NCBI GenBank assembly: GCA_944372795.1
Contig: CALWAF010000001.1
Location: forward strand, 64,390 to 128,389
Source: an uncultured Clostridia bacterium
GTDB taxonomy: Bacteria; Bacillota; Clostridia; Christensenellales; CAG-917
Reading direction: 5' to 3'
DNA length: 64,000 bases
Positions 34,115 through 55,028 of the stretch are shown in pieces. Position 1 is the first letter of the stretch; each line of letters starts with the position of its first letter. The notes under the pieces were generated by a model, which was not told the origin of the DNA, searched no databases, and saw only the letters and a list, made by a program, of their open reading frames with translations. The position numbers and the translations under genes are program-made.

Positions 34115-34336
34115 CATATGAGTCTGCGGCTCCTCTTCGCGTCGCAAAAATGCAAGCCGTTCATTCGCTCCTCGTTTTTCGCTTTGCTCTAAACTATCGC
34201 TCTTTCACTTATTTCCGCTCGCGGCGGAAATAAGTTGGATTTTAAGCAACAAATGTGCTGTGCTCTTTGCTTTGTCAAACACTAAAATTTGCTATCGGGA
34301 ATATCTTTTTGCTTCTCCGTCAGTCCCGACACAACG

Positions 34337-35323
34337 CTACTTGCGATCGCGTATCGATTCCCTTTCCAGCACTATCGGGTCGATCTTCTTAAAAACGGGC
34401 TTATGCTGCGCGCCGTCGCGCAGCCCTTTGATCAGCGCATCCGCTATCATCTTACCCAAAACATCAATGGGATGCCCTATCGCGGTTATGTTGAGAAGAT
34501 CTGCCCACGACGTATCGTCATATTGGATTATGCTTATGTCATCGGGGATCTTGAGTGACAGTTTTTGGACGGCTTTTACGGTGTTGAATCCGATCGTATC
34601 CGATACCGTGATGACAGCCGTCGGCGAGAACGCGAGCAATCTTGTGCATATTTTATCGGTGATGAATTCCTTATCTCCCATTGCAAACAACGAAGCGTCT
34701 TCTACGGTCAAACCGAAATCTTCATGCGCCTTTTTGAATCCGTCTACCCTCGTCTGCCATATGGCATTATCGAATCCTATCAGCATTATCCTACGGTGTC
34801 CGCTGTAAAGCAACCGACGCGCCGCAAGGTATGCTCCGTAATAATCATCCACCACGATACTGTCGAACTCGTCATACTGTTTCGTAAACAATTGCAAAAT
34901 ATAGACTCCTTGGCGGCTGAGCAATCTGGCGGTATCGGGATTGTAATTATTCGGCGAAAACATGATAGCCGACATCGAATTCCCCAAAAAATTATGTATT
35001 TTCGCATCGATGCGTTCATCGTCGCCCAACCCGAAATTTATGAAAAGTCTGAACCGAGTGTCGAGGTTCTTTTCGATCGAACGGATAAGCCGATTGAAAA
35101 AGGGGTTCTGCACGTCATTGACAATAAAACCTATGTTGTGATTCGTCTTGGATTTAAGATTGCTCGCAAAATAGTTGGGCACATAGCCGAGTTGTTCTAC
35201 CGCTTCGTTTATAATCTGCCGCTTCTTGTCACTCACTGCCTTCGGATTGTTGAGAGCGCGCGAAATTGTGGAAACGGATATTTTGGTATAATCGGATATA
35301 TCTTTTATTGTTACGTTTGCCAT
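34337..35323 (-). CDS. LacI-family transcriptional regulator
   Basis: 328 aa. N-terminal HTH VTIKDISDYTKISVSTISRALNN followed by a periplasmic-binding-protein-like sugar-binding core. Confidence 0.9.
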   Translation of the reverse strand: MANVTIKDISDYTKISVSTISRALNNPKAVSDKKRQIINEAVEQLGYVPNYFASNLKSKTNHNIGFIVNDVQNPFFNRLIRSIEKNLDTRFRLFINFGLGDDERIDAKIHNFLGNSMSAIMFSPNNYNPDTARLLSRQGVYILQLFTKQYDEFDSIVVDDYYGAYLAARRLLYSGHRRIMLIGFDNAIWQTRVDGFKKAHEDFGLTVEDASLFAMGDKEFITDKICTRLLAFSPTAVITVSDTIGFNTVKAVQKLSLKIPDDISIIQYDDTSWADLLNITAIGHPIDVLGKMIADALIKGLRDGAQHKPVFKKIDPIVLERESIRDRK

Positions 35324-35530
35324 GCTTTACCTTACCTCATTTTCGATCGCATCGTCTGCCGATATTAAACAAGCCCGATCACCCCTGACGACAACTTAAA
35401 ACAGTGACCGAACTTACGTAACGATCCGAATATCCGATTATGTCATTGGGTGATAATCGTTTTCATTATTATGATAAATGATGCGAATATCAATGTCAAT
35501 TATAGGAGTATAATTTAGGGAAAGTCTTTA

Positions 35531-35544
35531 TGAAAACGTTCTCT
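35531..35544. promoter_or_regulatory. LacI/CcpA-type operator half-palindrome (TGAAAACGTTCTCT)
   Basis: Matches TGWAANCGNTNNCA at 13 of 14 specified or free positions. Same core as 53297..53308 and 53430..53443. Confidence 0.5.
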
Positions 35545-35562
35545 TATTTTGACATATCACGG

Positions 35563-35591
35563 TTGACTTCTTGCAAAAAACCTCTTACAAT
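35563..35591 (+). promoter_or_regulatory. sigma-A promoter of the GH13 gene (TTGACT-17-TACAAT)
   Basis: TTGACT at 35563..35568 and TACAAT at 35586..35591. The ATG at 35598 is only 6 nt downstream, which implies a leaderless mRNA. Confidence 0.55.
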
Positions 35592-35597
35592 TATTGT

Positions 35598-37277
35598 ATG
35601 TCGAAAAAGAATTTTATCGGTGACGATTGGTATAAAAACGTTTGCATATATCAGGTTTATCCGCGCAGTTTTTGCGACAGCAACGGGGACGGCATAGGTG
35701 ACATCCGCGGCATCATCTCCAAGTTGGATTACATTAAATCTCTGAATGTCGGCGCGATATGGATATGTCCTATGTATGACAGCCCGAATCGGGATAACGG
35801 TTACGACGTGCGCGATTATTTCGCTTTGCAGCCGGAGTTCGGAACGACGGAAGACTTTTCGCTGCTGACGGCAAAATGCCATGAGCTCGGCATCCGAGTG
35901 ATCATGGATGTGGTCTTAAATCATAGTTCCTCCGAGTGTGAGTGGTTCCTTTCTTCCTCATCGTCGGAACGCGATCCGAAACGTGACTGGTACATTTGGA
36001 GAAAAGGAAAACCCGATGGCGCTCCGCCTACAAATTGGGAGGCGATCTTCGGAGGTTCGGCGTGGAATTACGACGCGAAGACGGATTCATATTATCTCGG
36101 CACCTTTTCACCATATCAACCGGACTTTAACTGGGAAAACGCGGAACTTCGCGAAGCTCTTTTCGATGTTCTACGTTTCTGGCTGGAGAGAGGTGTGGAC
36201 GGATTTCGTCTCGACGCCATCAACTTCATCTCAAAAGCGCCCGGATATCCCGACGGAATGGCAGGTCCGAACGGACTTGCGCCTATAAGACCGTTTGTAT
36301 GCAACGGACCGAAAGTTCACACATGGCTGAGCGAAATGAAAAAGAAGGTGCTCTCCCCCATGCACGCGATGACGGTGGGAGAAGCGGACGGTTCCTCTGT
36401 CGAAGACGCGATACGATTCTCGAAAGAGATCGACATGATTTTCAGTTTCGACCATGTTGCTCTCGACATCGGTCCGAATTTCACATTCAACAAAAAAATA
36501 CCATTGCCAAAACTCAAATCCATACTGAGCGAGTGGCAAAACAAATTGCGAGGCAAAGCATGGAATGCTCTGTTTTGGGAGAATCATGACCAACCAAGGA
36601 TAGTATCAAGACTGGGCGATGAAGATGATCTGCGCGCCGTTTCGGCGAAGATGCTTGCCGCTGCGCTTTTTTTCTTGCAGGGAACACCTTTTATATATCA
36701 GGGAGAGGAGCTCGGTCTTCCGAACACAAGGTTTGCAAAGCGCACGGAATTGCGCGATATCGAAATGTGTAATGCCTTTGTAAATTACGTAGATACGGGG
36801 ATACTCTCACAAGAACATTTGATGCGCTTTGCAAATTATAAAGGACGCGATACGGGACGCACTCCGATGCCGTGGGACGGAAGCCCGAGGGCAGGGTTTA
36901 CAACCGGCACGCCATGGATAAAACTCGGTGACACGCACCGAACTCTCAATGTCGAAAACCAAGATGCGGATGAACATAGTGTTCTGAACTGGTTCAGAAC
37001 ACTTATAGGATTCCGCAGGAACGATCGGGTAATACGCGACGGAGAATACAGGGTCTATAACATTGACGATCCGAATGTATATGAATACACGAGATTGCTT
37101 AACGGCTCGGGGTATCATATATTATGTTCGTTCTGCAAAGACGAAACCCGTTATGTTTGCGGCTTTGAGGGAACAAAAACGCAGATGCTGTTTTCCAATT
37201 ACGGTGACGATACCTTCTCCGAAACCGGAAAACTCCGCCCGTTCGAGACCGTGATCTCTAAGGCGGAGCTTCCTTAA
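35598..37277 (+). CDS. GH13 alpha-glucosidase (oligo-1,6-glucosidase / sucrose-isomer hydrolase type, subfamily 31-like)
   Basis: YQVYPRSF, GDGIGDIRG, DVVLNHSS, GFRLDAINF, EADG and WENHDQPR conserved regions I-IV. No signal peptide. The start was moved to ATG 35598 because the TTG at 35571 lies inside the promoter. Confidence 0.9.
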   Translation: MSKKNFIGDDWYKNVCIYQVYPRSFCDSNGDGIGDIRGIISKLDYIKSLNVGAIWICPMYDSPNRDNGYDVRDYFALQPEFGTTEDFSLLTAKCHELGIRVIMDVVLNHSSSECEWFLSSSSSERDPKRDWYIWRKGKPDGAPPTNWEAIFGGSAWNYDAKTDSYYLGTFSPYQPDFNWENAELREALFDVLRFWLERGVDGFRLDAINFISKAPGYPDGMAGPNGLAPIRPFVCNGPKVHTWLSEMKKKVLSPMHAMTVGEADGSSVEDAIRFSKEIDMIFSFDHVALDIGPNFTFNKKIPLPKLKSILSEWQNKLRGKAWNALFWENHDQPRIVSRLGDEDDLRAVSAKMLAAALFFLQGTPFIYQGEELGLPNTRFAKRTELRDIEMCNAFVNYVDTGILSQEHLMRFANYKGRDTGRTPMPWDGSPRAGFTTGTPWIKLGDTHRTLNVENQDADEHSVLNWFRTLIGFRRNDRVIRDGEYRVYNIDDPNVYEYTRLLNGSGYHILCSFCKDETRYVCGFEGTKTQMLFSNYGDDTFSETGKLRPFETVISKAELP

Positions 37278-37300
37278 GGAGCAATATATGAAACGTAGCT

Positions 37301-37328
37301 ACCTCCGACATATTGTCGGAGGTTTTTC
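37301..37328 (+). terminator. intrinsic terminator after the GH13 gene
   Basis: ACCTCCGAC-ATATT-GTCGGAGGT followed by TTTT. Confidence 0.8.
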
Positions 37329-37331
37329 GTA

Positions 37332-39479
37332 TCAGGAATACATACCCACAACCTGTGAGAGTTTGTCCAGCATCAGTTGGCGTCCGTCTACATTGAGATG
37401 GATGCCGTCATTAAGGTATCGTATGCTATTTTCCGCAGAAATGCCTATTTCATCATACAGATCGAACACTTCAACATTGAATTCCGCGCATATCTCATTC
37501 AGCACACGAATATAATCCGCGTAGAACTCCTCATCGACGTCATATCTGTAGATCGGGGTGCACCATACGATTTCCGCATCAGGATACAGAGCGGTAAGTT
37601 TGCTCAAGACATATCTTATTGAGCCTGCAACCGTCGACACGTCGATGGACGCAGCGTTTCCGAGTTCGACATCGCCCATAAAATAGGAATACAGGTCGTG
37701 TGTTCCGCGTTGGACCAGTATTTTTCTCGGTGCGCCGTATCTGCCGAGTTTTTCTGCGTAGTAACCCGAATCGATGCGATCCACAAGGCCGGAACCGGCA
37801 TTCGACATTACGGTGCTTTCGTTGATGGTATCACGGAATATCGTATATCCCGTCACCTCGCCCAAGTCGTTTACGAGCGAGCCCGTGTAATCCTCGCTAA
37901 TGATATCGTCGCCTAACACCCAAAGAGCGTTTTCGATCGGCGTTCCGTCGTAGTTAAGCACGGAGAAGTATTTTATGTTGACCGACTCTACGCCGTTGAG
38001 TATCCCGTCAGTCGGAAAATCTATGTCATCATATTCAAGCAAAAGCAAGACCGTCTTCCCTTTAAGCTCTTCGGGTATGTCTGCTTCTATGAAACTCTCT
38101 CCGGCACTCAGGTTCGGATCGGTCGCGAACGCGCCTGTCTGCCACGACGAAAAGTGGTATATTTTATTCCCGTCCTCAACGTCGATCGCCGTGAAACGCA
38201 ATTTATACTTGAAAGTGGCATCGGACTGTCGATATTCGAAATGCGCGCGCACGGACGTTGCCTCTTCTCCCAGTGTGACTTTCGTCCACATATAAAGATT
38301 TGGCAGACCCCCCTCGGCAGTGTCGTCATCTTCAAGTCCGCTGTGGATATTGTCCCAGCCTCCCATTTCTATACAATATCCGCCGCCGGCAAACCAAGAG
38401 CTCGGTCCGGTGAAATATTCGTAATTCGCGAGCACGAAGTTGCGCGCATCGGCGCTTCCGGTGCCGCCCTCACGGAAATCCGCCCACACATGCCAACCGT
38501 CGGCAGTCGGCAAAGAAGTCACGGGGACTTCGTCGATGTAATCCGCAGGGAGCCAGTAATAGTCTATAAAATCGCCCGAAGGCTCCGTAACGGTCACATC
38601 CACTTCTTTTGTGATGCCCATAGCGGCCATTGTGATCGTGGCATTACCCATGGCATGAAAAGCGAGCCTGCCCTTTTCGTTTACGGTCACCACGCTTTCG
38701 TCGCTCGAAGACCATTCAGTGGGAATGGCTTCTCCGGCCGGGATAGCCTTCTCCGGCACCGCCATCTGGAACAAAACTCGATATGGTTCGTCCAAAGGCA
38801 CCGTGAGTTCCGTGATTTCCGTATAGAAATCATTGGAAACGATTTTAATGTCCTCAAGCTCGTAAGTGGCGATCTCAAGTTCGATGGACGCCGAGACCGA
38901 AGGTTCTCTTACGGCAGTTGCGGTTATGGTGAATACGCTCCCACCCTCAACAGTATCCGCGACCTCTACCACCCCTGCGGAAGTCACAGTTACGCCCGCA
39001 TTCTCGGGAGTGACGAAAAAGTTAAGATTCTTGGTCGTGGCGTTCTCCGGCAAAACCGAATATGCCAGCTGTTTGCGAACGCCCGTAGCGATTTCCGTGC
39101 GTTCTCCGTCCGCAAAAACGATGGCTGTGACCGGAACATACTCCTTGACTTTGACCGTTACGGACGTGCTTGCGCCTCCTCCCTGTATCGTGACGGTCGT
39201 CTCCCCTGCCGAAACTCCTTTCACCACTCCGGAACCGGAAACCGTTGCAACGGATGCATCCGCACTCGCGAACGAAAACCCGCCCGCATACGAAGACGGC
39301 TCCGCCTTGAGAGAAAGGATCACTTCATCACCTTCGGAAAGTGTCAAAACGCCGTCCGAAAGACCTCTTGCCGTAACGGATATGCTTTGCACCGCGACCG
39401 TGTTTTCGCTTTTGTCGTTGCAAGCAACGCACACGGTCAGACAAAGCAAGACCATCAGTAAGATCATTGCTTTCTTCAT
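37332..39479 (-). CDS. surface lipoprotein: 3x Big_2 Ig-like domains + unassigned ~160-aa domain + degenerate SGNH-hydrolase-like domain
   Basis: ATG 39479 and the lipobox VCVAC. Big_2 patterns (ASADASVATVSGSGVVKGVSAGETTVTI). The C-terminal SGNH fold has signature residues changed: GDD for GDS, NES for SGS, THD for TND. DGIHLN is retained. Confidence 0.75.
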   Translation of the reverse strand: MKKAMILLMVLLCLTVCVACNDKSENTVAVQSISVTARGLSDGVLTLSEGDEVILSLKAEPSSYAGGFSFASADASVATVSGSGVVKGVSAGETTVTIQGGGASTSVTVKVKEYVPVTAIVFADGERTEIATGVRKQLAYSVLPENATTKNLNFFVTPENAGVTVTSAGVVEVADTVEGGSVFTITATAVREPSVSASIELEIATYELEDIKIVSNDFYTEITELTVPLDEPYRVLFQMAVPEKAIPAGEAIPTEWSSSDESVVTVNEKGRLAFHAMGNATITMAAMGITKEVDVTVTEPSGDFIDYYWLPADYIDEVPVTSLPTADGWHVWADFREGGTGSADARNFVLANYEYFTGPSSWFAGGGYCIEMGGWDNIHSGLEDDDTAEGGLPNLYMWTKVTLGEEATSVRAHFEYRQSDATFKYKLRFTAIDVEDGNKIYHFSSWQTGAFATDPNLSAGESFIEADIPEELKGKTVLLLLEYDDIDFPTDGILNGVESVNIKYFSVLNYDGTPIENALWVLGDDIISEDYTGSLVNDLGEVTGYTIFRDTINESTVMSNAGSGLVDRIDSGYYAEKLGRYGAPRKILVQRGTHDLYSYFMGDVELGNAASIDVSTVAGSIRYVLSKLTALYPDAEIVWCTPIYRYDVDEEFYADYIRVLNEICAEFNVEVFDLYDEIGISAENSIRYLNDGIHLNVDGRQLMLDKLSQVVGMYS

Positions 39480-39484
39480 TGTGA

Positions 39485-41866
39485 TTACCTCCTGCCGCAA
39501 ATAATATCCGCAAGCGGATTTTTATTGCCGATACCATCCGTCCATTCGCTCGCCAACGGATAGATTACACCGGCGTCGGGCGCGTCCGTATCGAGGAGCA
39601 CATCGTTTATTATCGCATTGTGCACCAAATTCGCTTCGCTCTCGTTCTGCACCTCCGGCTTTTCGGCAAGGTGCAGATTCATACGTCCGTAAATACTGAC
39701 GTCGTTGCCGTCGTCATTGAGCCTCATCATGACGCAATGATATTTGAGCTGATTTATGAGAGTGACGCTCGAACTCGAAAGGGAAAGCACACTGCCCTCC
39801 GAATACATTCTGTCCGCGCCGCACCCGTTCATTGTGACCGTGCTGTTATGTGCTTCCAATATCCCTGCGGAACAGAACGTAAAAGCACTCATTATGCTTA
39901 CCGAGCTGTTGTTGACCACGAAGAATCGGGTGTGAGTTTCGGTATAGGTATAATAATTCCAAAGATTATTTACGCGCCACAGCCAACCTTCCTTGAACAG
40001 GTCGGGGAACTGCGCGCTGAACCCGGTCTGGGTAGCCACCGTCGCATTGGAAAAGATGTTTTCCACAAAACAGTTTTCCGCCCCGTCGATCCTTACCCCT
40101 TCGTTGAAAAACAAAGCCGGTATGTTCTTTATGACACAGTTATCGGCATTTTTCACATGTATTCCGTTGAAGCTGTTTGTCAAACCCACATTGGTCACAT
40201 AGGCTCTGTCGCCTGCAAGCCTTATGGTAAATGCGGACGGCGCGATCTCATATTCGCCGGGTTGCGGCATCCAGAGATTGTTGTCGGGATAACATATCCT
40301 CAAACCCGAGATACCCGCATTTTCGGACAGGGTCACGAATGCATCGGCTTCGGAGGCATTTTCTACCGCATCGTCGTAATAGGAAAAAATCACAGTCCCG
40401 AGATCGTTGCCGAGTGTGCCGCGATTCGTTGTCGATGAGCACCCTCTGAGCAAAACGTTACTGCCCACGGAAAGAGCTCGCGTAATTTTATAAAAACCTG
40501 CGGGCATATAGACTACGCCGCCACCTGCGGAAGACGCTGCCGAGAGTGCGGATTCGACCGCCGCGGTGTCATCCGTCAACGCATCTCCTTTCGCCCCGTA
40601 ATCCTTTACGTTGAACAACCTTGCTCCGGGCGCGGGCAAATCGGGCGTCACGGTGTTGACATCCGGGACCTCCGCCTTATTTACATATATCCTTTCCCCT
40701 GCCGCACGTCCGTCTATCTCCACTCCCGTGAGTCTGACATATCCGACGGGCGAATGATTTGCCACGGCGAAATTCTCTCCTTCTATCCTTCCGCCTGTAA
40801 ACAACATGCCCCAGCCTTTATACAGCGCATCGACCATGAGCCCGTAGCGGCAGTCGGTGATGTGTGAATCATAAAATCCGCCCATGAAGTCTATGGGGTT
40901 ATCGGGCTGTATACGCGTACCGTCTTGGATCTGGATTCCCACATAATATCCATCGACGTCGATCCCGTAATAAGGGGACCACTCCAGATCGCCGAGTTTA
41001 AGTCCGACCGCACTGTTTTTGGTCACTTCGTAAACCTCGTCATATGAAGGCGCATTGAACTTCTCGCCCGCCTCAGACCAGTACGAAGGAGAAAAGCATA
41101 CGTTCTTGTAATAACCGATGTCCGACTCATTGACGCTGTCAATGCCGACGAACAACGGCGTTCCTTTCAAATTTTCGATGACCAATCCTTCGTGCGCATC
41201 CTGCATCCCTATCTGAACATTAGGATTGACCGTGCGGCTTGCTACGACACCTCGATACGAATTAAGCAACGTCACGTTTTGGATGGTGAACTGTATGTGT
41301 TCAAGTATGGTGAAAGCTCCTCCCATGATCTCGAATGTCGCAGGGAATGGGCGAACATCACCCGCATATTGAGCGGGATACCATACCGTCAGACCGTTGA
41401 CGCCGCTGTTCGCGCGCAAACGGAACAATCCGCTCGTCAACTGCGCGGAGAACGGCACGTCCGCCACTATGACCGTCCCGTAATCCCCCGGACATTCATC
41501 GGGATCGCGCCAGTCGCCGGCTATGGTGATGTAATTGTCCACGGTCACGCTCCCCGTCAACAGATAAAAACCTTCGGGGAGATAGATCGTGCCGCCGCCC
41601 GTTGCACTCAGATCGGACACCGCGCGTTTAAGGACGGACGTCACGTCTTCCCTGCCGCTGTTATCGGCATTGTAAGGCGCTTCCGTAAGTACGATATCGG
41701 CAATGAGCGCCGCTTGAGCGCCATTGTCTGCACGGATCAGTCTGGGCTCCTGCGCCGGCACCGTATCCTGCGCCGAAGCCGATGGAATTTCTTTCATGGC
41801 AAAACCTCCCGAAAAGATCAGCAAACTTAACACGATGATTAGGGGAACAACAAATGCTTTTCTCAT
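39485..41866 (-). CDS. secreted protein with two tandem right-handed beta-helix (Pectate_lyase_3-type) domains; glycoside hydrolase candidate (GH55-like architecture)
   Basis: ATG 41866 and a signal peptide. There are two copies of the N-cap motif: YNADNSGREDVTSVLKRAV...GGGTIYLPEGFY and DYGAKGDALTDDTAAVESAL...GGGVVYMPAGFY. Confidence 0.65.
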   Translation of the reverse strand: MRKAFVVPLIIVLSLLIFSGGFAMKEIPSASAQDTVPAQEPRLIRADNGAQAALIADIVLTEAPYNADNSGREDVTSVLKRAVSDLSATGGGTIYLPEGFYLLTGSVTVDNYITIAGDWRDPDECPGDYGTVIVADVPFSAQLTSGLFRLRANSGVNGLTVWYPAQYAGDVRPFPATFEIMGGAFTILEHIQFTIQNVTLLNSYRGVVASRTVNPNVQIGMQDAHEGLVIENLKGTPLFVGIDSVNESDIGYYKNVCFSPSYWSEAGEKFNAPSYDEVYEVTKNSAVGLKLGDLEWSPYYGIDVDGYYVGIQIQDGTRIQPDNPIDFMGGFYDSHITDCRYGLMVDALYKGWGMLFTGGRIEGENFAVANHSPVGYVRLTGVEIDGRAAGERIYVNKAEVPDVNTVTPDLPAPGARLFNVKDYGAKGDALTDDTAAVESALSAASSAGGGVVYMPAGFYKITRALSVGSNVLLRGCSSTTNRGTLGNDLGTVIFSYYDDAVENASEADAFVTLSENAGISGLRICYPDNNLWMPQPGEYEIAPSAFTIRLAGDRAYVTNVGLTNSFNGIHVKNADNCVIKNIPALFFNEGVRIDGAENCFVENIFSNATVATQTGFSAQFPDLFKEGWLWRVNNLWNYYTYTETHTRFFVVNNSSVSIMSAFTFCSAGILEAHNSTVTMNGCGADRMYSEGSVLSLSSSSVTLINQLKYHCVMMRLNDDGNDVSIYGRMNLHLAEKPEVQNESEANLVHNAIINDVLLDTDAPDAGVIYPLASEWTDGIGNKNPLADIICGRR

Positions 41867-42054
41867 TTCTTTTCTTTCACTCCTGTTTTTACGGTCAGCG
41901 CTATACCGACGACGGTGCAAATGAGATTCAATACCAGCGTAACGACAAGTATGACGAACTCCGGCGACCCTTTGACGGTAAACGGCAGTATGAACGCGCA
42001 CATTATAGCCAGCACGAAAGTCAGTCTGAAAAAAACCTTCCCTTTCAAGTCCAT
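41863..42054 (-). CDS. small hydrophobic membrane protein (63 aa)
   Basis: ATG 42054 with GAGGAGG 7 nt upstream. Two predicted TM helices. ATGA overlap with the downstream beta-helix gene and a 10-nt overlap with the upstream ATPase gene. Confidence 0.55.
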   Translation of the reverse strand: MDLKGKVFFRLTFVLAIMCAFILPFTVKGSPEFVILVVTLVLNLICTVVGIALTVKTGVKEKK

Positions 42055-43037: not shown

Positions 43038-44031
43038 CTTGCTCCCCCTCCGCATACAAATGACATTTGACCATATGCCCTCCGCCCATATCGACATCGT
43101 CGGGGGACACGATCTCGCATCTTTCCGTCTTTTTTAAGCAGCGATCCGCAAATACGCATCCCGGAGGTAAATTCGTTATATCGATCGGCGTGCCCGGAAT
43201 TTCCGTCAATGTGTCGGCATCTCGCCTTAAAGACGGTGTCGCATTGATAAGCCCTTCCGTATACGGGTTGAATCTGCGGGCAAAGACATCCTCGACCGTG
43301 CCGAACTCCATAAGTCTGCCGCCATACATCACCCCCAGATTATCGGCGTATTCGGCGACCACCGCAATATCATGCGTAAGCAAGAGCATCGTCGTGCCGT
43401 ATTCTTCGTTGATGCTCTTCAACAATCCGAAAATATAAGATTGAGTGATGACGTCCAGCGCTGTCGTAGGCTCGTCGAGAATTATTATTTCCGGTCGGAG
43501 AAGCAGAGCTAAAGCTATCATCACGCGCTGTTTCATACCGCCGCTTATCTCATGCGGATAGCTGTCCAGCACTCTCTCGGAAAGATTTACGCGTTCCAGC
43601 AATTTAGCAAATATTTTGCGGGCTTCTTTTTTCGATTCCTTGCCGCCGTGAATTTTATATGTCTCGTAAAACTGATTCAGGATGGTCACGATGGGATTCA
43701 ACGAGCTTTGCGCCCCCTGAAAAACCATCGACACGATATCCCAACGGAAGTCGTTGAGCTGCTTTTCGTTCAATGCCGTCACGTCGATGTCTTCGCCGCG
43801 CTTTTCGGAATGCACGATGACCCTGCCTCCCACCACTCTGCCGGGAGACGTGATACAGTTCAACAGTGCGCTTGCCAAAGTAGTCTTTCCGCTCCCGCTT
43901 TCTCCGACGACCGCGGTTATTTTCCCCTTTTCGAGTTTCATCGAAACATCGTTTACGGCATGCAGACACAATCTGACCATCTCGTAGTCTATCGAAACGT
44001 GATCGAATTCAGCTATATAACGTTTCTCCAT
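43030..44031 (-). CDS. ABC transporter ATP-binding protein (OppD/DppD-like)
   Basis: Walker [10 protein letters not shown], signature ISGGMKQR and Walker [13 protein letters not shown]. Confidence 0.9.
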
Positions 44032-48014: not shown

Positions 48015-48641
48015 TCACAGCCACTCGTGATCGTCCAGATCCTCGGGCAGATCGATCTCGGGAAGCAGACCCGGATCCCGATATTTGTACGAAACCGTCT
48101 TTATGACGTTCTGTCCGTTATCGCTGTACGAAGCCTCGGCGCTTATAGAGGTCAGAAAAACGTCATCGAAATATGCTGTTACGCGCAGATCATCGAAGTC
48201 CGCGGAAGCATAGTCGAATGCTACTCCGTTTTTCAGAGACTCGATATCGGATATCCTGTCCCGTTCCGCGACAAAATCCGATCGGGTGACGGACAGAAAA
48301 TCGTCGAGGGAGATCGCCGCCTTCATAAGCCTTCCGCTCTCATCCGAAAAATATCTCACTCCGCGGACGTAATACTCCGTTCTACCCGCGTTTTCTTTCA
48401 TGGCAACGGGTTCGCCGAGTTTGTTTGTCGTCAACACATAGCGTGTTATGTTCACTTCCTCCCCCACAGTGCTTGTGACCGTCAGATCATAAGCCGACAG
48501 CGCAGATGTGTTGGCAAGCCTGACCTCGAAAGCGTCATATGCTTCCGCAGCAGGCAAAAGCTCTTCATTCGGATCGCAGCCGACAAGAGCCAGCAAACAT
48601 AAAACACAAAACACTGCAACGGTGATCGCTTTATTTTTCAT
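48015..48641 (-). CDS. hypothetical lipoprotein
   Basis: 208 aa with the lipobox ALVGC. No family recognised. Co-transcribed with the transporter. Confidence 0.6.
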   Translation of the reverse strand: MKNKAITVAVFCVLCLLALVGCDPNEELLPAAEAYDAFEVRLANTSALSAYDLTVTSTVGEEVNITRYVLTTNKLGEPVAMKENAGRTEYYVRGVRYFSDESGRLMKAAISLDDFLSVTRSDFVAERDRISDIESLKNGVAFDYASADFDDLRVTAYFDDVFLTSISAEASYSDNGQNVIKTVSYKYRDPGLLPEIDLPEDLDDHEWL

Positions 48642-49252
48642 ACAACACCTCTGAGCGCATTCGAAAATATCTCGGTAAGACGCTGTTTGCCGCTCTCATT
48701 CGGATGTGTTCCGTCATACAGAAACTCCTTCTGATTGGTTTTGTCTATTCCGGAGGCTTTATATACGTCCAGAAACATGATCTTGCGGATCGCACACAGA
48801 CCGGCGAGTTTTTCGCGATACTCGTTAAACGCTTTCTCCCCCGTTGCTGCGCTCCACATGGGCGAACACCACACCACTTTTGCAAAAGGAAATCTCTTTG
48901 CGAAATATCCCGCACAATAATTTACGGCTCCGAGCAAAGAAGTCGCCTCATCGACGGAGTCCGGATCGCCCATGGTTATCATGCCGTTGACATCGTACTC
49001 ATAAAGATCGTTCACACCTCTTTGGACAAGGATTATATCCGGCTTGATCGCCCCTGCAAACAGTCTGTCGAACGCACCGTCTTTGATGAGATTGACCATG
49101 CACTGCTCGGGCATCCTACAAGGAGATATGGACGCGCCGGTAAAATCGGAAGTCACCGAAGCGCAATGCACCGCAGAGGCTATGTCGCACACCATATCTC
49201 TGTTTATACGAAAGATACTGTCACCGATAGTCCAAAGAACCCTTTGCCGCAT
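48638..49252 (-). CDS. SGNH/GDSL hydrolase (esterase), no signal peptide
   Basis: ATG 49252 with AAGGAG 6 nt upstream. All four SGNH blocks are intact: IGDSIF, TGASIS, RGVND and DGTHPN. Confidence 0.8.
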   Translation of the reverse strand: MRQRVLWTIGDSIFRINRDMVCDIASAVHCASVTSDFTGASISPCRMPEQCMVNLIKDGAFDRLFAGAIKPDIILVQRGVNDLYEYDVNGMITMGDPDSVDEATSLLGAVNYCAGYFAKRFPFAKVVWCSPMWSAATGEKAFNEYREKLAGLCAIRKIMFLDVYKASGIDKTNQKEFLYDGTHPNESGKQRLTEIFSNALRGVV

Positions 49253-49283
49253 GACCCGCTCCTTTATCTCCGACAAACAGCCG

Positions 49284-50465
49284 TCATATACAAACCGCAG
49301 TAGTAACTGCAATCGAAGTGGCGCTTTCCGCTACGATATAAGCAACACCCTTGCCAACGAATACCAATTTGCCGCGCTCCTCGTCATATACCGCGACGTT
49401 CTCGTCCGTGGAATAAATGCGACAGCCTTCTCCCCCTTCAAGCGAAAGCGGATATTCGATGCCCGCCACACCTTCTCGGTATCCTTTCGACCATGACATC
49501 GGTTCGGAAAACAGATCCGCCGCATCGTCCATGCGCAAAGCGGCTTCGATGACTATGCGGTAAGTTTCGCGCCCCGTCTGATTCGGATGTATCCCGTCTA
49601 TCGTCATTTTCCCCAATGCCGAAGTCGTGATCCCGGTAGCCTCATGCAGATCTATCACTTCCACTCCGTATGAAGTGCATATTTCATTCAGATTGTCATT
49701 GAATTCACGGATCCTGTCCAAAGACGCGTCGCTGCGCGTGATGCTGTTTGTCCACACTATCTTGGCTTCGGGATATTTCTCGCGGAAGTATTCGATAGAA
49801 TATCTTATCGCGCCGTATGTTTCGGAGGAGTTTACGGAATCGGGATCGCCCAACTTCAACGGGTTGCCGGCCACTCCGCTCCAATATACATCGTTGGTCC
49901 CTCTGCCTATGAGTATAAGATCGGGTGCCACGCTCCCAATCAACTCGTCATAATAACCGCTGTTGATATGATCGACGATGCCGACGGAGGATGCCGGCGC
50001 TATAGTGCTTCCGCTTATCGTATCGCGAACGAGCGTATAGCCGAGGTCCGACGCGATCGTATCCAACAACATGGGGCTGAAATCGGATGTGAAAATGCTG
50101 TCGCCTACGGCAAGCATCACGCCACCCACCTTTACGGAGATCTCCGCTCGCTTCGTCCCCGCACAAGCCGTCACGACGGCGCTGCCGGCAGAAACACCTG
50201 TTAAAACACCGTTTTCGACGCTTACAACGTCCGGATCGGATGAAGCGAACGTACACTCGCGGTTCGCTTCTATGGCACATACCCCGCCGACCGCAAGAGA
50301 GACCTTCTCCGTATTCAACGTTATCTCCTCCTCGATTTCGGGCGGTATGCTTCCTCCCGGAACATCCAGAACGCCGTTTTGCGACGCATCATCGCACGCC
50401 GACGCGACAAACATAGTCGCGCAGCACACGATGGTTATAAGAAGAAATATGACGCCCCTTTTCAT
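49284..50465 (-). CDS. surface lipoprotein: Big_2 domain + SGNH/GDSL esterase + C-terminal Ig-like domain
   Basis: ATG 50465 with AAGGAG 6 nt upstream and the lipobox ASAC. Big_2 pattern (FASSDPDVVSVENGVLTGVSAGSAVVT). Intact SGNH blocks VGDSIF, SGSTI, RGTND and DGIHPN. Confidence 0.8.
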   Translation of the reverse strand: MKRGVIFLLITIVCCATMFVASACDDASQNGVLDVPGGSIPPEIEEEITLNTEKVSLAVGGVCAIEANRECTFASSDPDVVSVENGVLTGVSAGSAVVTACAGTKRAEISVKVGGVMLAVGDSIFTSDFSPMLLDTIASDLGYTLVRDTISGSTIAPASSVGIVDHINSGYYDELIGSVAPDLILIGRGTNDVYWSGVAGNPLKLGDPDSVNSSETYGAIRYSIEYFREKYPEAKIVWTNSITRSDASLDRIREFNDNLNEICTSYGVEVIDLHEATGITTSALGKMTIDGIHPNQTGRETYRIVIEAALRMDDAADLFSEPMSWSKGYREGVAGIEYPLSLEGGEGCRIYSTDENVAVYDEERGKLVFVGKGVAYIVAESATSIAVTTAVCI

Positions 50466-50514
50466 ATATAACTCCTTCATCGCCGCACTTACCGTGCGGC
50501 GATGATCCGGTATT

Positions 50515-53247
50515 TCAGTCGCCGAAGGCAACCTTGTTGAGCCACATGGTTGCGCCGGTTTGCGTTGTCGTTTCGTCGAAGTCCTGTTCGATAAGAACGG
50601 TCAGCACTTCACCGTTGTATTCACTGACATCGAAAACAAGCTCTGTGCCCGTGGTCCACTGCGAGACAGATATCTTCCCCCAACCGTTCCTGACGGCGAC
50701 AAAATCCGCATTCGTCTCAGGAGTCAGAGTCACGATCGTTCCGTCCTCAAGCAAAAGTCGTACGCGAACGTTTACGCCGTCTCCCACATTATCACAGCCG
50801 ACCCAGACGCTAAACATGTTTCCCTGCACCCATACGCGGTTGACAAAGACTGCATCCGCGCCAAGATCCTCGGCAGTGTCATTGCCGCTCTCCCATGCTA
50901 TGGACTGTAAGCTTGCACCTAGCGTTCCGACATTGTTAAGCTGACCGTCACCCGTTAGGAAGTGCTTCCATTTTGCTTTTGCGGTCGTATCTCCGCGCAG
51001 TCCCCATACGGTGAAGTCTTCTTCGTCAGTGCCCCAAACTTTAGAGCCGTCGATCTCCAACGCCTTCCAATCGGCATCGTCGAACGCGCCTATCGGAGAT
51101 GTCAGTGTTCCGGTTATAGTCGAATCCGGAATGTCGACATCCTGTACATCTTTAAGTTCGAGTTGTTCTTTCGCGCTCCTGACGGCGGCGATCGCAGCGT
51201 CGATATAACCTTGTTGATCCGCGTTGAGGTCACGGCTGAGATTCTTGAACGATGTCACAGCCGCCTCGTATCTTGCCCAGCTCACATCCGTGTAAAGCGA
51301 AGCATCGAGGCTATCTCCGTCAAGTTCTGCCGCGAGTTCGTCATATGCCGCATAATCGGCAGGTTCCGTCGTCACTTCAGCAGTAAATGTCGCAAAGTTG
51401 AACCAAAGCGTGCAGGCGCCGGCGTCGGTCTCTGTCCGGTTTTCATCCTGCTCTATCATGATCACGGCTTCTTTGCCCTTAAATGCCGACACGTCATATG
51501 TCAGTTTTGCACCCGACACCCATTGGCTGATCTGCAAATTGCCCCAATTCCGATTCTTGTAAAGTTTGAACCCCGGAACGGTCCACATAGGTGCGAGATT
51601 GTGTTCAACGCCGTCCACAAGGAATGTAAGACGATAGTTCACGTTTGTATTGTCGCTGTCCGTGCCTACGTATATCACAAAATAGTTCTCGCTGACCGTG
51701 ACTTTGTTCATGGTCACTGCATCACGCACGAAGGCGCCGCCGTCATGACCGTCAGCAGGTTCGCGGGCTATGATCTGCAAAGACCCTCCGGTCACATCCT
51801 TATAAACCACCTGTCCCTCTGCTCCGTTCAGGAAAACAGTGGTCCATTTCGCTTTTGCCGCGATATCGCCGCGCAATCCCCACGCGCTCCAATCGGTTTG
51901 ATTCGGATCACCCCAAGACGTCGCGGTGTCAAGAGTGAGAGCGGAGACGTCCACCTGCTCTTCTGCCGCCACAAAAGCCATGCTGTACACAACCAAAGAG
52001 TCGCGGCATTCTTGGATCAGCCCTTCGAGCTGAAACTCCTTGTAACCGATGTCCAGATAATATTCTTCCTGATAAACGTCGGCAGGAGCATCCTGTTCGA
52101 TCAAAAGTATTATGGTCTGTCCGACATAATCCGAAAGATCGACGTCAAAATAAGTGCCCGTGCGCATGGTATCGTAATCCAACCCCGTTCCTTCATCGTT
52201 TAGCGGAGCTTTGATCTCGACATAATCCATAACAACGTGATCGGTATAATCATCCGGACAAATCACGGACACTCGGAACTTGCTGAGAAGATTGTTGTAA
52301 TCAGGATAAGGATTGTTGCTTGCAAAAATGCGGAACGTGCTGTTTTCCCCGACCGTGACCTTATTCCAGAGGATCGTATTCGGATCTTCGTCATCCACTT
52401 CGGGGTTGACACCGTCCGTCCCCGCACGTCCGAATGTATCCGAACCGCGCATAACTATATAAGGCATCCCGGCAGGCCCCTCGAAAAGGTTCCAGTTGGG
52501 GCTGTGCCCCGGCACGACTTGCTGTTTCCATTCCATAGCCGTCTTATCTTCGTCATTGTCGGCAACGTATGTCCATGACGTCAGTTCGGAGACAGCCTGT
52601 GCATCGATAAATTCTTTTGCGATCCCGAAATAGGTGACATATACGCTGCGCTCGAACGTCGCGGTGCGCCCTTCTGCGTCGGTCGCGGAATAAGTAACCG
52701 TATAAGTGCCGAGCTTTGAAATGTCGAAACCGCCATCATCGGTCACTACAATCGGCAGTTCGACGCCGTTGCCATCCGATGCGGACAGACCTTTCGTCAG
52801 ATCCACCGAGGCTGCGGGGGTATTGTTGTTAATATACAACTCACCCTCATACTGTTCCTCTTCCTTTATGATCGGTGCGGAACCTCCGGACTGCCGATCG
52901 GTCACATTAACGGTGCATACATCCTGTGCGCTGCCCGCACTCGCGGTGACGGTGGCAGTCCCTGCCGAAACAGCCGTCACCACTCCTTTATCAACCGTGA
53001 CTATTTCCGTATTTGAGCTGTTCCAACTCACAGCCACGCCTTCTACGTTGACATCGGCAAAAAGCGTAAACGTATCTCCCACCGTAAGATCCAATTCATC
53101 CCGATCCAGCGTAACGATTAGCGCGCCGCCGTCTCCCTGATCATCGGAACGTCCGTCGTTGCAAGCAATGAAAGTCGTTGCAACGACCAACATCAATAAG
53201 AAAACGATCGCCGATCCGGAGATTTTGGCTATTCTCTTTTTCCTCAT
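50515..53247 (-). CDS. large surface lipoprotein: Big_2 + DUF5011-like Ig domain + 3 copies of an unassigned ~160-aa domain + FIVAR-like helical spacer
   Basis: ATG 53247 and the lipobox FIAC. Big_2 (NSSNTEIVTVDKGVVTAVSAGTATVT). DUF5011-like (GTYTVTYSATDAEGRTATFERSVYV). Three repeats end in LLIEQD, IMIEQD and VLIEQD. FIVAR-like YTDVSWARYEAAVTSF... Confidence 0.75.
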   Translation of the reverse strand: MRKKRIAKISGSAIVFLLMLVVATTFIACNDGRSDDQGDGGALIVTLDRDELDLTVGDTFTLFADVNVEGVAVSWNSSNTEIVTVDKGVVTAVSAGTATVTASAGSAQDVCTVNVTDRQSGGSAPIIKEEEQYEGELYINNNTPAASVDLTKGLSASDGNGVELPIVVTDDGGFDISKLGTYTVTYSATDAEGRTATFERSVYVTYFGIAKEFIDAQAVSELTSWTYVADNDEDKTAMEWKQQVVPGHSPNWNLFEGPAGMPYIVMRGSDTFGRAGTDGVNPEVDDEDPNTILWNKVTVGENSTFRIFASNNPYPDYNNLLSKFRVSVICPDDYTDHVVMDYVEIKAPLNDEGTGLDYDTMRTGTYFDVDLSDYVGQTIILLIEQDAPADVYQEEYYLDIGYKEFQLEGLIQECRDSLVVYSMAFVAAEEQVDVSALTLDTATSWGDPNQTDWSAWGLRGDIAAKAKWTTVFLNGAEGQVVYKDVTGGSLQIIAREPADGHDGGAFVRDAVTMNKVTVSENYFVIYVGTDSDNTNVNYRLTFLVDGVEHNLAPMWTVPGFKLYKNRNWGNLQISQWVSGAKLTYDVSAFKGKEAVIMIEQDENRTETDAGACTLWFNFATFTAEVTTEPADYAAYDELAAELDGDSLDASLYTDVSWARYEAAVTSFKNLSRDLNADQQGYIDAAIAAVRSAKEQLELKDVQDVDIPDSTITGTLTSPIGAFDDADWKALEIDGSKVWGTDEEDFTVWGLRGDTTAKAKWKHFLTGDGQLNNVGTLGASLQSIAWESGNDTAEDLGADAVFVNRVWVQGNMFSVWVGCDNVGDGVNVRVRLLLEDGTIVTLTPETNADFVAVRNGWGKISVSQWTTGTELVFDVSEYNGEVLTVLIEQDFDETTTQTGATMWLNKVAFGD

Positions 53248-53295
53248 AATGAATCCCCCTATATTAACGGTAAAATTCCCAGATTTTTCCATTTA

Positions 53296-53309
53296 CGAAA
53301 ACGTTTTCA
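53296..53309. promoter_or_regulatory. LacI-type operator with perfect 12-bp palindrome GAAAACGTTTTC
   Basis: The palindrome sits at 53297..53308, in the leader of the minus-strand 16-kb operon and downstream of the promoter at 53347..53375. Confidence 0.6.
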
Positions 53310-53346
53310 TAATTTAACCGAGAATTTCACCCGCTTTGATGAGTCC

Positions 53347-53375
53347 ATTTTACTATGGCGATGGCGGATTGTCAA
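53347..53375 (-). promoter_or_regulatory. sigma-A promoter of the minus-strand island operon (TTGACA-17-TAAAAT)
   Basis: -35 at 53375..53370 and -10 at 53352..53347, with a 17-bp spacer. Confidence 0.55.
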
Positions 53376-53395
53376 TACATAATTTGAAAAATGTG

Positions 53396-53424
53396 TTGAC
53401 AACCCACTCGCTCATGTTTATGAT
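53396..53424 (+). promoter_or_regulatory. sigma-A promoter of the GH32 gene (TTGACA-17-TATGAT)
   Basis: TTGACA at 53396..53401 and TATGAT at 53419..53424. Confidence 0.6.
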
Positions 53425-53429
53425 AATTT

Positions 53430-53443
53430 TGAAAACGTTACCA
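53430..53443. promoter_or_regulatory. cre/LacI-type operator TGAAAACGTTACCA at the predicted GH32 transcription start
   Basis: Fits TGWAANCGNTNNCA exactly and lies 6 nt downstream of the -10 box. Confidence 0.6.
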
Positions 53444-53531
53444 AATGTGCAATAAAAACTCGAGATAGTGTTCAAGATGTTTCGCCATATCAATATCGTT
53501 TTCAAATTAAAATACCGCGCGGAGATACTGT

Positions 53532-54920
53532 ATGTCCTACAACATTTTCTACAAACCTGCCGAACAAAACAGCGCCTTGGCGGACGTTATCCCCTTCTAT
53601 GAGAATGGCACTTTTCATTTGTTTTATCTCCGCGATCACCGCGACCCCGCTAAATACGGCGACGGAATAAGCTGGTATCGTGTTTGCACAAATGACTTCA
53701 CATCCTTTACGGACAAAGGAGTTGCCATACCCGCCGGAAGCCGAGAGCAATTGGATCACTGTGCGTACACGGGCGGGATAATCAAATATGACGGTTTATA
53801 TCACATATTCTATACAGGTCATAATGCGCGCATAAAGGATACCGATTATCAAAACGAATGCATCATGCATGCGACAAGCAACGACCTCGTCAAATGGACA
53901 AAACTGCCGGAGGACACCTTTTTCGCTCCGGAAGGATACTGCCACGGTGATTTCAGAGATCCTTTTGTATACCCCTCCCCCGAGGGCAACGGATTCGTCA
54001 TGCTTATCTGTGCGAGACCTCACAGCGGCAACGCGATACGTAAAGGCGAGCTTATCAAAATGACGTCCGACGACCTGAAACATTGGAAATTCGAGAAAAA
54101 ATTCTATGCGCCGCAGGCTTTTCATACACATGAGTGCCCTGATCTGTTCAATATAGGCGACTGGTGGTATCTGTTGTTTTCCGAGTATTCGGACGACTAC
54201 ACGACAAAATACAGGATGAGTCGATCACCCGAAGGGCCTTGGGTCTGCCCTCCCGACGACTCTCTCGACGGTCGGGCGTATTATGCAGCGAAAACGGCAT
54301 CTGACGGCAACGATCGTTTCCTGTTCGGTTGGGTCCCGACGCGAACCGGAAATTCCGATAAACTGCCGTGGATGTGGGGCGGCAACCTTGTCGTCCACAG
54401 TCTTATACAAAGAGAAGACGGCACTTTGGGTGTAGCTTTACCCGACAGCATCGGGAGCACGTTCAAAAATCAAACCGCAATTCCTTCCTTTTCGCTGTAC
54501 AACAAATACGATTGCGGAGAAAAAGTTTTATTCAAACGCACCGATAAGACTTTTTCGTTATCGTTCACCATAACCGCACATGCTGACAGCACAAGATTCG
54601 GTATTTTCCTAAATAAAAACGAATCCGAAGACAAAGCCTTCGCTTTTACGTTTGACTTGAACAAGCGCCGCGTCGAGGCGTGCGCGCGTCCGGCGTTTCC
54701 CGCAGGAGAATATGACAATTATCATATGTCCCGCCCACTTCCGAACGGAAACTCGTTCGACATAACGCTTATCGCCGACGGAGATATATACATCATTTAT
54801 ATAGGAGGAGATGTTGCGCTGTCCGCTCGGTGCTGCAACATGCTCGGCGATGGCATCGGCATATTTTCAGAATTCTCCGACATTGACATCGAACACATAA
54901 AATTCGGCAAACTTGTCTGA
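53532..54920 (+). CDS. GH32 glycoside hydrolase (beta-fructofuranosidase / fructan hydrolase type), cytoplasmic
   Basis: 462 aa with no signal peptide. N-terminal nucleophile region ADVIPFYENGTFHLFYL, the RDP motif (FRDPFVY) and the EC motif (HECPDLF) of GH32. Confidence 0.8.
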   Translation: MSYNIFYKPAEQNSALADVIPFYENGTFHLFYLRDHRDPAKYGDGISWYRVCTNDFTSFTDKGVAIPAGSREQLDHCAYTGGIIKYDGLYHIFYTGHNARIKDTDYQNECIMHATSNDLVKWTKLPEDTFFAPEGYCHGDFRDPFVYPSPEGNGFVMLICARPHSGNAIRKGELIKMTSDDLKHWKFEKKFYAPQAFHTHECPDLFNIGDWWYLLFSEYSDDYTTKYRMSRSPEGPWVCPPDDSLDGRAYYAAKTASDGNDRFLFGWVPTRTGNSDKLPWMWGGNLVVHSLIQREDGTLGVALPDSIGSTFKNQTAIPSFSLYNKYDCGEKVLFKRTDKTFSLSFTITAHADSTRFGIFLNKNESEDKAFAFTFDLNKRRVEACARPAFPAGEYDNYHMSRPLPNGNSFDITLIADGDIYIIYIGGDVALSARCCNMLGDGIGIFSEFSDIDIEHIKFGKLV

Positions 54921-54994
54921 CCTCATTACGTGCAATTTGCCATGCCAAACCTGAATAACCAAAACTACTGCAAAACAAAAACGACAAAAGAAAA

Positions 54995-55026
54995 AGCAAA
55001 CAAAATCTGGTTCGATTTTGTTTGCT
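54995..55026 (-). terminator. intrinsic terminator downstream of tRNA-Ala
   Basis: AGCAAACAAAATC-GAACCA-GATTTTGTTTGCT on the minus strand, followed by a T-rich tract. Confidence 0.7.
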
Positions 55027-55028
55027 TA

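Follow-up and report, generated by a model that had tools for sequence, protein, structure and literature searches.

Introduction

In gut Firmicutes, Roseburia and Eubacterium among them, Gram-positive polysaccharide utilization loci (gpPULs) bring together a regulator, an ABC importer with its lipoprotein solute-binding protein (SBP), extracellular and cytoplasmic glycoside hydrolases (GHs) and esterases, which are co-located and co-regulated, and their importers are usually of the family-1 CUT1 type. Sucrose-polymer scavenging of the Streptococcus mutans msm/dexB type pairs an endo-enzyme that acts outside the cell with an ABC importer and, in the cytoplasm, a GH13_31-type glucosidase, while the levan PUL of Bacteroides thetaiotaomicron (BT1754-BT1765) includes the GH32 endo-levanase BT1760. 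Here we describe a locus of about 20.7 kb with features of all three, found in a 64,000-nucleotide (nt) stretch of DNA (hereafter the window) that corresponds to positions 64390-128389 of contig C1 (C1:64390-128389) in a metagenome-assembled genome (MAG; 1.60 Mb in 52 contigs, 95.5% complete). By its flanking genes the host belongs to Candidatus Limadaptatus, a genus of Christensenellales (Clostridia) known as MAGs from the guts of chicken and other animals; the Dak protein encoded there shares 87-97% identity with proteins of named MAGs. We consider the locus to be probably a self-contained, LacI-controlled cluster for the use of an esterified (probably O-acylated) glycan whose fragments would carry beta-fructofuranosyl and alpha-glucosyl residues, and the only reasonable reading of its origin is horizontal acquisition from an organism of lower G+C content.

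The island differs from each of these systems. Compared with gpPULs, its importer is of the Opp/Dpp type, with a family-5 SBP and two ATPases, its presumed depolymerase is a tandem beta-helix protein, and a 63-amino-acid (aa) membrane protein and a 208-aa lipoprotein are fixed parts. Among solved structures its GH32 is closest to BT1760 and it has the BT1760-like C-terminal domain, but SusC and SusD are absent, the GH32 is predicted to be cytoplasmic and has no signal peptide, surface cleavage is assigned to an enzyme outside GH32, and esterases are added. It shares with the msm/dexB system an extracellular enzyme, an ABC importer and a cytoplasmic GH13 glucosidase, yet uses another transporter family and another extracellular enzyme and carries esterases and a GH32 in addition. 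In the literature we found no characterised example of this gene combination, in keeping with a first-pass annotation of the window, made from the sequence alone, which could match it to no known substrate pathway.

Gene content and operon structure

Domains were assigned with Pfam and NCBIfam, and structures were modelled with AlphaFold2 (AF2) and compared using Foldseek. The genes of the island, and the terminator among them, are as follows.

34337-35323, minus strand: LacI-family repressor, 328 aa (Pfam LacI, Peripla_BP_1, Peripla_BP_3)
35598-37277, plus strand: GH13 alpha-glucosidase (oligo-1,6-glucosidase-like), predicted cytoplasmic, 559 aa (Pfam Alpha-amylase, 487 bits)
37301-37323, plus strand: hairpin terminator separating the GH13 gene from the operon, which converge here (terminator scan)
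37332-39479, minus strand: surface lipoprotein, 715 aa, with Big_2 and a C-terminal degenerate SGNH domain (Pfam; lipobox VCVAC)
39485-41866, minus strand: secreted tandem beta-helix protein of GH55-like fold, 793 aa, presumed depolymerase (signal peptide, AF2, Foldseek)
41863-42054, minus strand: protein of 63 aa with two transmembrane segments, translationally coupled to its neighbours
42045-43037, minus strand: OppF-like ABC ATPase (Pfam ABC_tran, oligo_HPY)
43030-44031, minus strand: OppD-like ABC ATPase (Pfam ABC_tran, oligo_HPY)
44040-46045, minus strand: OppC-like and OppB-like permeases (Pfam BPD_transp_1)
46058-47998, minus strand: family-5 solute-binding lipoprotein, 646 aa (Pfam SBP_bac_5; lipobox)
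48015-48641, minus strand: lipoprotein, 208 aa, conserved in the module (no Pfam or NCBIfam match)
48638-49252, minus strand: SGNH esterase, predicted cytoplasmic, 204 aa (Pfam Lipase_GDSL_2; no signal peptide)
49284-50465, minus strand: surface SGNH esterase lipoprotein, 393 aa (Pfam Lipase_GDSL, Lipase_GDSL_2, Big-like; lipobox)
50515-53247, minus strand: surface lipoprotein, 910 aa, with Ig-like and three jelly-roll domains resembling carbohydrate-binding modules (CBMs), presumed glycan binder (Pfam Big_2, Bact_surface_Ig-like)
53532-54920, plus strand: GH32, predicted cytoplasmic, related to the endo-levanase BT1760, 462 aa (Pfam GH32N, GH32_BT1760-like_C)

The 12 minus-strand genes between 53247 and 37332 overlap or lie no more than 49 nt apart, a spacing most naturally explained by a single operon. 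This operon, its Opp-type importer, the LacI regulator and the placement of GH13 and GH32 at the two ends had all been listed in the first-pass annotation and were recovered here. Lipoboxes were found at the N-termini of the 910-, 393-, 208-, 646- and 715-aa proteins and a signal peptide on the beta-helix protein, while the same N-terminus analysis found no export signal on GH13, GH32 or the 204-aa SGNH protein.

A shared operator-like motif

An operator-like motif, TGAAAACGTTTTCA, occurs eight times in the 1.6-Mb genome when up to two mismatches are allowed, and four of these eight occurrences lie in the two control regions of the island, adjoining strong promoter-like sites of GH13/LacI, the operon and GH32.

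35471-35499, minus strand: promoter-like site of the LacI gene (promoter scan)
35531-35544, unstranded: operator-like site TGAAAACGTTCTCT in the divergent GH13/LacI promoters
35633-35646, unstranded: operator-like site TAAAAACGTTTGCA, 35 nt within the GH13 coding sequence
53296-53309 and 53430-53443, unstranded: operator-like sites of the divergent operon/GH32 control region (53296-53443), inverted repeat I1
53347-53375, minus strand: predicted operon promoter
53396-53424, plus strand: predicted GH32 promoter

That one operator-like motif marks all three of the island's promoters supports the view that its parts form one functional unit.

The beta-helix enzyme and its relation to GH55

The presumed depolymerase was modelled with good scores (predicted local distance difference test, pLDDT, 89; predicted TM-score 0.90) as two consecutive beta-helices. 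The best Foldseek matches of the model were GH55 beta-1,3-glucanases (5m5z, 3eqn and 8jhh), with TM-scores of about 0.4 and 10-13% identity. In agreement with this, hhalign against 15 fungal GH55 proteins gave a probability of 98.5%, covering residues 57-458 (the N-domain) only, and phmmer, hmmsearch and hhalign aligned only the N-caps and the N-domain with GH55. The protein thus resembles GH55 enzymes (PcLam55A, CtLam55, MnLam55A and SacteLam55A) in its two consecutive right-handed beta-helices and in detectably homologous N-cap motifs and N-domain. It differs from them in its low structure-based identity, in a C-domain that does not align and in catalytic and subsite motifs that are not kept.

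The catalytic signature of GH55 comprises a general-acid Glu with a Tyr at +3, a Glu-His pair and Trp..Asp-His residues of subsite -1 (PMC10637969). We located it in the GH55 alignment at E633/Y636, E610/H611 and W569/W571/D574/H575. Among the conserved C-domain residues of the island protein (N559, E602 with a Leu at +3, N607 and D685) this signature has no apparent counterpart at the sequence level, and the invariant motifs of the protein's own family, DLEW, HE and RG, do not occur in GH55. Since the catalytic set lacks a counterpart and the DLEW and HE motifs are foreign to GH55, the protein appears to be GH55-like in fold and not a member of GH55. An exhaustive search for its relatives returned 509 representatives of clusters formed at 50% identity (E ≤ 1e-30), one of them above 50% identity and the others at 36-40% or less. 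Its close matches carry no specific functional name, and NCBI calls some of the relatives at 31-34% identity GH55.

These likenesses bear on the possibility that the locus is a system for beta-1,3-glucan (laminarin, or the yeast or fungal wall), with GH13, GH32 and LacI as unrelated passengers. The Foldseek ranking, the hhalign probability and the GH55 names given by NCBI all point in that direction, and Opp-type ABC systems for beta-glucan oligosaccharides exist in Thermotoga. Nevertheless, we regard this as quite unlikely: besides the apparent absence of the GH55 catalytic signature, neither the island nor any of the homologous loci examined contains a beta-glucosidase or phosphorylase, and GH13 and GH32 share the operator of the operon and are again found with the module in further lineages.

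Foldseek also matched the beta-helix model to tailspikes and to the phi29 gp12 appendage. The target might then be an O-acetylated microbial surface polymer, such as an exopolysaccharide, a capsule or a teichoic-acid-like polymer of other gut microbes, with the beta-helix protein as a tailspike-like depolymerase and the esterases removing O-acetyl groups. In line with such a target, beta-helix and SGNH proteins form the most conserved pairing of the module, the cytoplasmic partners vary (GH13, GH32, xylulokinase) as would fit a varied heteropolysaccharide, and the module is found in reduced-genome gut organisms that would scavenge. However, a match to tailspikes is to be had with any beta-helix model, and here the TM-scores were low (0.15-0.27). 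Furthermore, bacterial polymers containing fructose are uncommon beyond levan and inulin, and the locus has genes neither for a lyase nor for a uronate pathway, so that this target too seems unlikely to us.

Extracellular cleavage of fructose-containing glycans of the kind proposed here is so far known for GH32 and GH91-type enzymes only. It is conceivable, albeit on the doubtful side, that the beta-helix protein founds a glycoside hydrolase (or lyase) family apart from GH55 that acts extracellularly on an esterified fructose/alpha-glucose glycan. With the parts that constantly accompany it (the SGNH esterases, the multi-CBM lipoprotein, the Opp-type importer and the conserved 63-aa membrane protein and 208-aa lipoprotein), it would then define a new class of horizontally mobile glycan-utilization locus in Gram-positive bacteria and Mollicutes.

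Esterases, binding proteins and cytoplasmic enzymes

The three SGNH domains of the island are paralogues of one another. The 393-aa and 204-aa proteins keep all of the catalytic blocks (GDS in block I, G in II, N in III and DxxH in V), while the SGNH domain of the 715-aa protein (window 37335-37928) has Ser replaced by Asp, Gly by Glu and Asn by His in blocks I-III. The same replacements are found in a homologous locus, L043, whose beta-helix protein is 83% identical, and the catalytic set is intact in the distant orthologues from loci L044 and L131, which argues that the degeneration is recent. Compared with solved structures, the 393-aa esterase matched uncharacterised GDSL proteins only.

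The AF2 model of the 910-aa lipoprotein (pLDDT 82) consists of Ig-like domains followed by three jelly-rolls, for which Foldseek returned Cry protoxin beta-rolls, CBM51 and CBM22, that is, only generic CBM-like folds. No Pfam or NCBIfam model matched the 208-aa lipoprotein.

The relatives of the 646-aa SBP in the PDB are all remote (E of 3e-14 or weaker), and its nearest entries in the PDB and NCBIfam are binders of peptides, nickel and opines. This would suit an Opp system that imports peptides, with surface proteins serving adhesion or cell-wall turnover. Such a role is very improbable given that no protease is present, that the order of the transporter genes is fixed to a glycosidase-fold enzyme across distant lineages, and that the transporter operon, GH13 and GH32 have a LacI-type operator in common. 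In addition, at 646 aa the SBP is about 100 aa longer than a typical OppA.

The structure of BT1760 (PDB 6r3r) matched the GH32 with an E-value of 2.6e-55, and in the alignment of the two the nucleophile Asp (D18), the RDP motif (DFRDPF) and the EC motif (HECPD) are conserved. The top PDB matches of GH13 were oligo-1,6-glucosidases and alpha-glucosidases (E of 1e-159); it also passes the cut-off of the NCBIfam phosphotrehalase subfamily (556 vs. 535). Its region II reads GFRLDAINFISK, with an Ala right after the nucleophile; in GH13_31, enzymes specific for alpha-1,6 bonds have Val here.

Homologous loci in other lineages

Related loci were found in several other lineages. The most similar, L043, is 77% identical at the nucleotide level over 11.8 kb, has a G+C content of 0.51 and includes the module and the 3' end of a GH13 gene. 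Locus L135 (74% nucleotide identity over 14.5 kb; G+C 0.45) includes a GH32 and neighbours a LexA-like gene that has no homologue in the genome studied here. In an Acholeplasmataceae MAG (GCA_050953825.1; loci L044/L045) the beta-helix protein is 55% identical, the G+C content is 0.31, gene order is kept and GH13 and LacI are attached. Variants of the module at 46-56% amino acid identity and G+C contents of 0.40-0.55 occur in five further loci (L046, L129, L130, L131 and L134).

The small proteins are conserved as parts of this module. A gene for 61-64 aa lies at the exact position of the 63-aa gene in L043, L044, L045, L046, L128, L130, L131, L132, L134 and L135, and orthologues of the 208-aa lipoprotein (199-208 aa) are encoded upstream of the SBP gene in L044, L046, L128, L129, L131, L134, L135 and L136. 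The order SBP, OppB, OppC, OppD, OppF, small membrane protein, beta-helix protein is kept down to 31% identity (L132) and the pairing of beta-helix and SGNH proteins down to 33% (L133). Beside the module, L129 carries two GH32, two LacI and three PF00756 esterase genes and L130 carries GH13, LacI and GH32. The recurrence of GH32 and/or GH13 with LacI beside the module in L044, L129, L130 and L135, in differing arrangements, supports the view that these parts belong together.

Proposed function

Taken as a gpPUL-like unit, the parts can be placed in a tentative pathway. The 910-aa multi-CBM and 715-aa Big_2 lipoproteins would hold the polymer at the cell surface, where the 393-aa SGNH lipoprotein would remove ester groups and the secreted GH55-like beta-helix enzyme would cut the backbone, possibly aided by the 63-aa membrane protein. 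The 646-aa binding lipoprotein and OppBCDF would then import the oligosaccharides. In the cytoplasm, the 204-aa SGNH esterase would take off the remaining esters, and the BT1760-like GH32 and the GH13 alpha-glucosidase would free fructose and glucose. The LacI repressor is expected to bind TGAAAACGTTTTCA-like operators at the three promoters, and an imported product presumably lifts repression.

An acylated substrate is proposed because of the esterases, and fragments with beta-fructofuranosyl and alpha-glucosyl residues because of the GH32 and GH13 partners. Hypothetical candidates are glycans of the levan type or others derived from sucrose, or acylated oligosaccharides built on sucrose. The first-pass annotation had described the locus as PUL-like for a Gram-positive, and the co-location of a regulator, an ABC importer and glycan enzymes under a shared operator bears this out. 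It had also put forward acylated fructan or sucrose-derived oligosaccharides as candidate substrates; of this, the fructose and alpha-glucose content gains support from the shared operator and from the recurrence of GH32, GH13 and LacI in at least three other lineages, while acylated fructan is as hypothetical as before.

Several points weigh against the proposed function and origin. Where an activity is known among relatives of the beta-helix enzyme, the substrate is beta-1,3-glucan rather than a fructan or an alpha-glucan, and we are aware of no acylated fructan that is common in nature. The remoteness of the relatives of the family-5 SBP would formally leave room for a peptide cargo. Neither an integrase nor an att repeat in the island explains its arrival. 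Finally, in three loci (L046:14587-16074 in L046/47, L131:16630-18108 and L044:19046-20512) the module is followed by a xylulokinase gene, whose product scores above the XylB equivalog cut-off and which either replaces GH13/GH32 or is added to them. The cytoplasmic end of the pathway therefore differs between loci, and the module may serve glycans of differing sugar content in different hosts, as this variation suggests. Even so, none of the other readings is better supported than that of a LacI-controlled cluster for an esterified glycan containing fructose and alpha-glucose.

Composition and foreign origin of the island

The island lies between two tRNA genes, which were placed by ARAGORN with both 3' ends facing inward, as the first-pass annotation had it. 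The elements at its two ends are listed here.

33977-34061, plus strand: tRNA-Leu(GAG), host gene and left anchor (ARAGORN; 3' end faces the island)
34062-34224, unstranded: dispersed host repeat of about 160 nt, not foreign DNA (hairpins at 34084-34115 and 34207-34235)
54994-55027, minus strand: terminator hairpin of tRNA-Ala (terminator scan; a similar one in the island-free relative G002)
55029-55105, minus strand: tRNA-Ala(GGC), right anchor (ARAGORN; 3' end faces the island)

Foreign DNA had been taken to fill positions 34116-55028 between the tRNAs. While the bracketing by tRNAs stands, the full span does not, since positions 34062-34224 are a dispersed host repeat and the approximately 50 nt beyond tRNA-Ala are its own terminator. 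The foreign part thus runs from near 34,225 to near 54,975 (about 20.7 kb).

In 2-kb windows, G+C content was 0.56-0.62 on either side of the 34-55 kb stretch and 0.46-0.53 within it, with the shifts falling at both tRNAs. Overall the island has a G+C content of 0.497, about three standard deviations below the assembly mean of 0.585 (standard deviation of 5-kb windows, 0.030). G+C at third codon positions (GC3) ranged from 0.54 to 0.63 among the 15 island genes, with a pooled value of 0.58, compared to 0.79-0.83 in five flanking genes (0.81). The change in G+C and codon usage at the tRNAs that had been noted in the first-pass annotation is thus strong when computed. The G+C content of the island would fit either a donor near 50% G+C or DNA that has been partly ameliorated.

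The distribution of the locus is patchy. Forty relatives, including 14 species of the genus, lack an orthologue of the beta-helix gene; three of them gave short, weak matches to the protein (E of 2e-6 or weaker). Of 400 genomes drawn evenly from the order, one encodes a homologue that is 32% identical. The Dak and aminotransferase genes of the flanks do occur in the genus, at 84-97% identity. A pattern search with the beta-helix protein alone against the genome contigs, of a kind that reaches close relatives only, gave no match. The locus is accordingly not kept at this site across the family. Within the assembly, tBLASTn found no second GH32, no second SBP of this kind and no other LacI paralogue above 50 bits; the island therefore introduces these functions anew.

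Horizontal acquisition, as originally proposed for this DNA at tRNA genes, follows from the composition, the patchy distribution and the syntenic copies of lower G+C content in other contexts taken together. The genome is a MAG of 52 contigs and the genus has many rearrangements around these tRNAs, and one could ask whether the locus is instead ancestral and was lost in the relatives, or whether the contig is a chimera of metagenome assembly. Both are far-fetched in view of the difference in GC3 (0.58 vs. 0.81), the absence of an orthologue from 14 congeners, with a single distant homologue among the other genomes of the order, and the position of the closest copies in lower-G+C organisms and other contexts. 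Moreover, in two independent assemblies the island is joined to the tRNA-Leu cassette and the repeat of the host.

Junctions and insertion site

These independent copies, both 98.9% identical to the island, are a 21,061-bp Logan contig from ERR10610537 (L128) and a 21,122-bp ENA contig (L136; BRZ_LP NODE_2340). The long-range structure of the host genome rests on the MAG assembly, while the left junction of the island is corroborated by independent assemblies: L128 crosses the 160-nt host repeat and ends at window position 33997, within tRNA-Leu. On the other side, L136 (positions 1-77) joins the island to tRNA-Val(CAC) and not to tRNA-Ala(GGC) (window 55029-55105), with identical sequence from the first nucleotide after the CCA. 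An identical tRNA-Val is present in the genome studied here at C21:12358-12434, with different downstream sequence and context.

The tRNA-Leu(GAG) cassette with its promoter adjoins the Dak gene, an arrangement conserved in congeners. The orientation of this cassette (promoter, tRNA and repeat; window 33902-34200) relative to the Dak gene differs among species of the genus (L034, L040, L041, L048 and L049), and in genome G010 it lies 3' of the aminotransferase gene instead. The 160-nt repeat 3' of tRNA-Leu has at least nine more copies in the genome at 71-88% identity, on contigs C1, C2, C3, C5, C10, C21 and C35, and is found at the equivalent place, 3' of tRNA-Leu, in congener G007. Relatives of the repeat also mark other synteny breakpoints, for example at C1:54608-54909.

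In two congeners, G011 and G006, Dak and tRNA-Leu (plus strand) are followed directly by the RsmD/CoaD-alr-paaK region, that is, the site without the block described below. Dak and tRNA-Leu likewise lie beside the RsmD region in G007, G008, G004 and BRZ_MP bin75, with a tRNA cassette of 160-300 bp inverted. At the tRNA-Leu site, the block is missing from five congeners. In the genome studied here the RsmD region starts at C1:153,985, 55.4 kb past tRNA-Leu, and the island is the left end of the intervening block, which consists of the sugar island, about 20 kb of host genes and a second low-G+C island. The host part (window 55106-64000, continuing to C1:140 kb) includes tRNA-Ala, the aminotransferase gene, SLOG, an OYE/WYL cluster and others. 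In G008, G011 and G006 the tRNA-Ala/aminotransferase/SLOG/OYE genes lie across the Dak region, on its other side, and in G002 tRNA-Ala is followed by genes that are found here on contig C19.

The second low-G+C island (C1:140004-154127, equivalent to window positions 75.6-89.7 kb; G+C 0.37-0.51) begins at the 3' end of a tRNA-Leu(CAG) and encodes a type I restriction-modification system (HsdR, HsdS and HsdM). At its outer end, outside the window and 35 kb from the sugar island, lies the recombinase gene closest to the latter, encoding a large serine recombinase (C1:152.3-154.1 kb), and this end abuts the junction where congener synteny resumes.

The host genes on the right side of the sugar island have been translocated in this genome and now stand between two low-G+C islands. 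The flanks of the sugar island are not ancestral neighbours, and it sits at a synteny breakpoint 3' of tRNA-Leu(GAG). The tRNA genes and short repeats appear to be recombination substrates at this breakpoint.

Rearrangement by recombination with a second copy of the island was considered and rejected, as BLAST of the island against the genome matched only the 160-nt repeat. No integrase or recombinase is encoded within the island, all 15 of its open reading frames being assigned; a repeat search found no att-like direct repeat flanking it, and a k-mer search with both tRNAs showed that it shares no exact stretch of 11 nt or longer with either of them. The lack of an integrase and of an att duplication, already remarked on in the first-pass annotation, thus holds. 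The locus is like tRNA-linked genomic islands in its foreign composition 3' of a tRNA gene and in its patchy occurrence among strains or species, and differs from them in having no integrase or att inside and, on its other side, another tRNA that belongs to a translocated host block. It is thus a genomic island of an ordinary kind, with the lack of integrase and att and the position between two tRNAs on a rearranged block as its unusual points.

Implications

An uncultured gut member of the Christensenellales with a genome of 1.6 Mb has, by this account, gained a complete nutrient-harvesting pathway in one transfer. At its junctions, tRNA genes and short dispersed repeats served as breakpoints for both the gain of an island and the translocation of a block within one genus. 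The module is common to Acholeplasmataceae and other gut lineages and its extracellular parts have no characterised relative, which points to a glycan, dietary or microbial, with an undescribed route of breakdown. Its value is that it recurs, is mobile and can be tested, while its extracellular enzymes still lack an assigned function. Through this beta-helix enzyme, the esterases and the binding protein, a function could be assigned to a beta-helix family of about 500 clusters.

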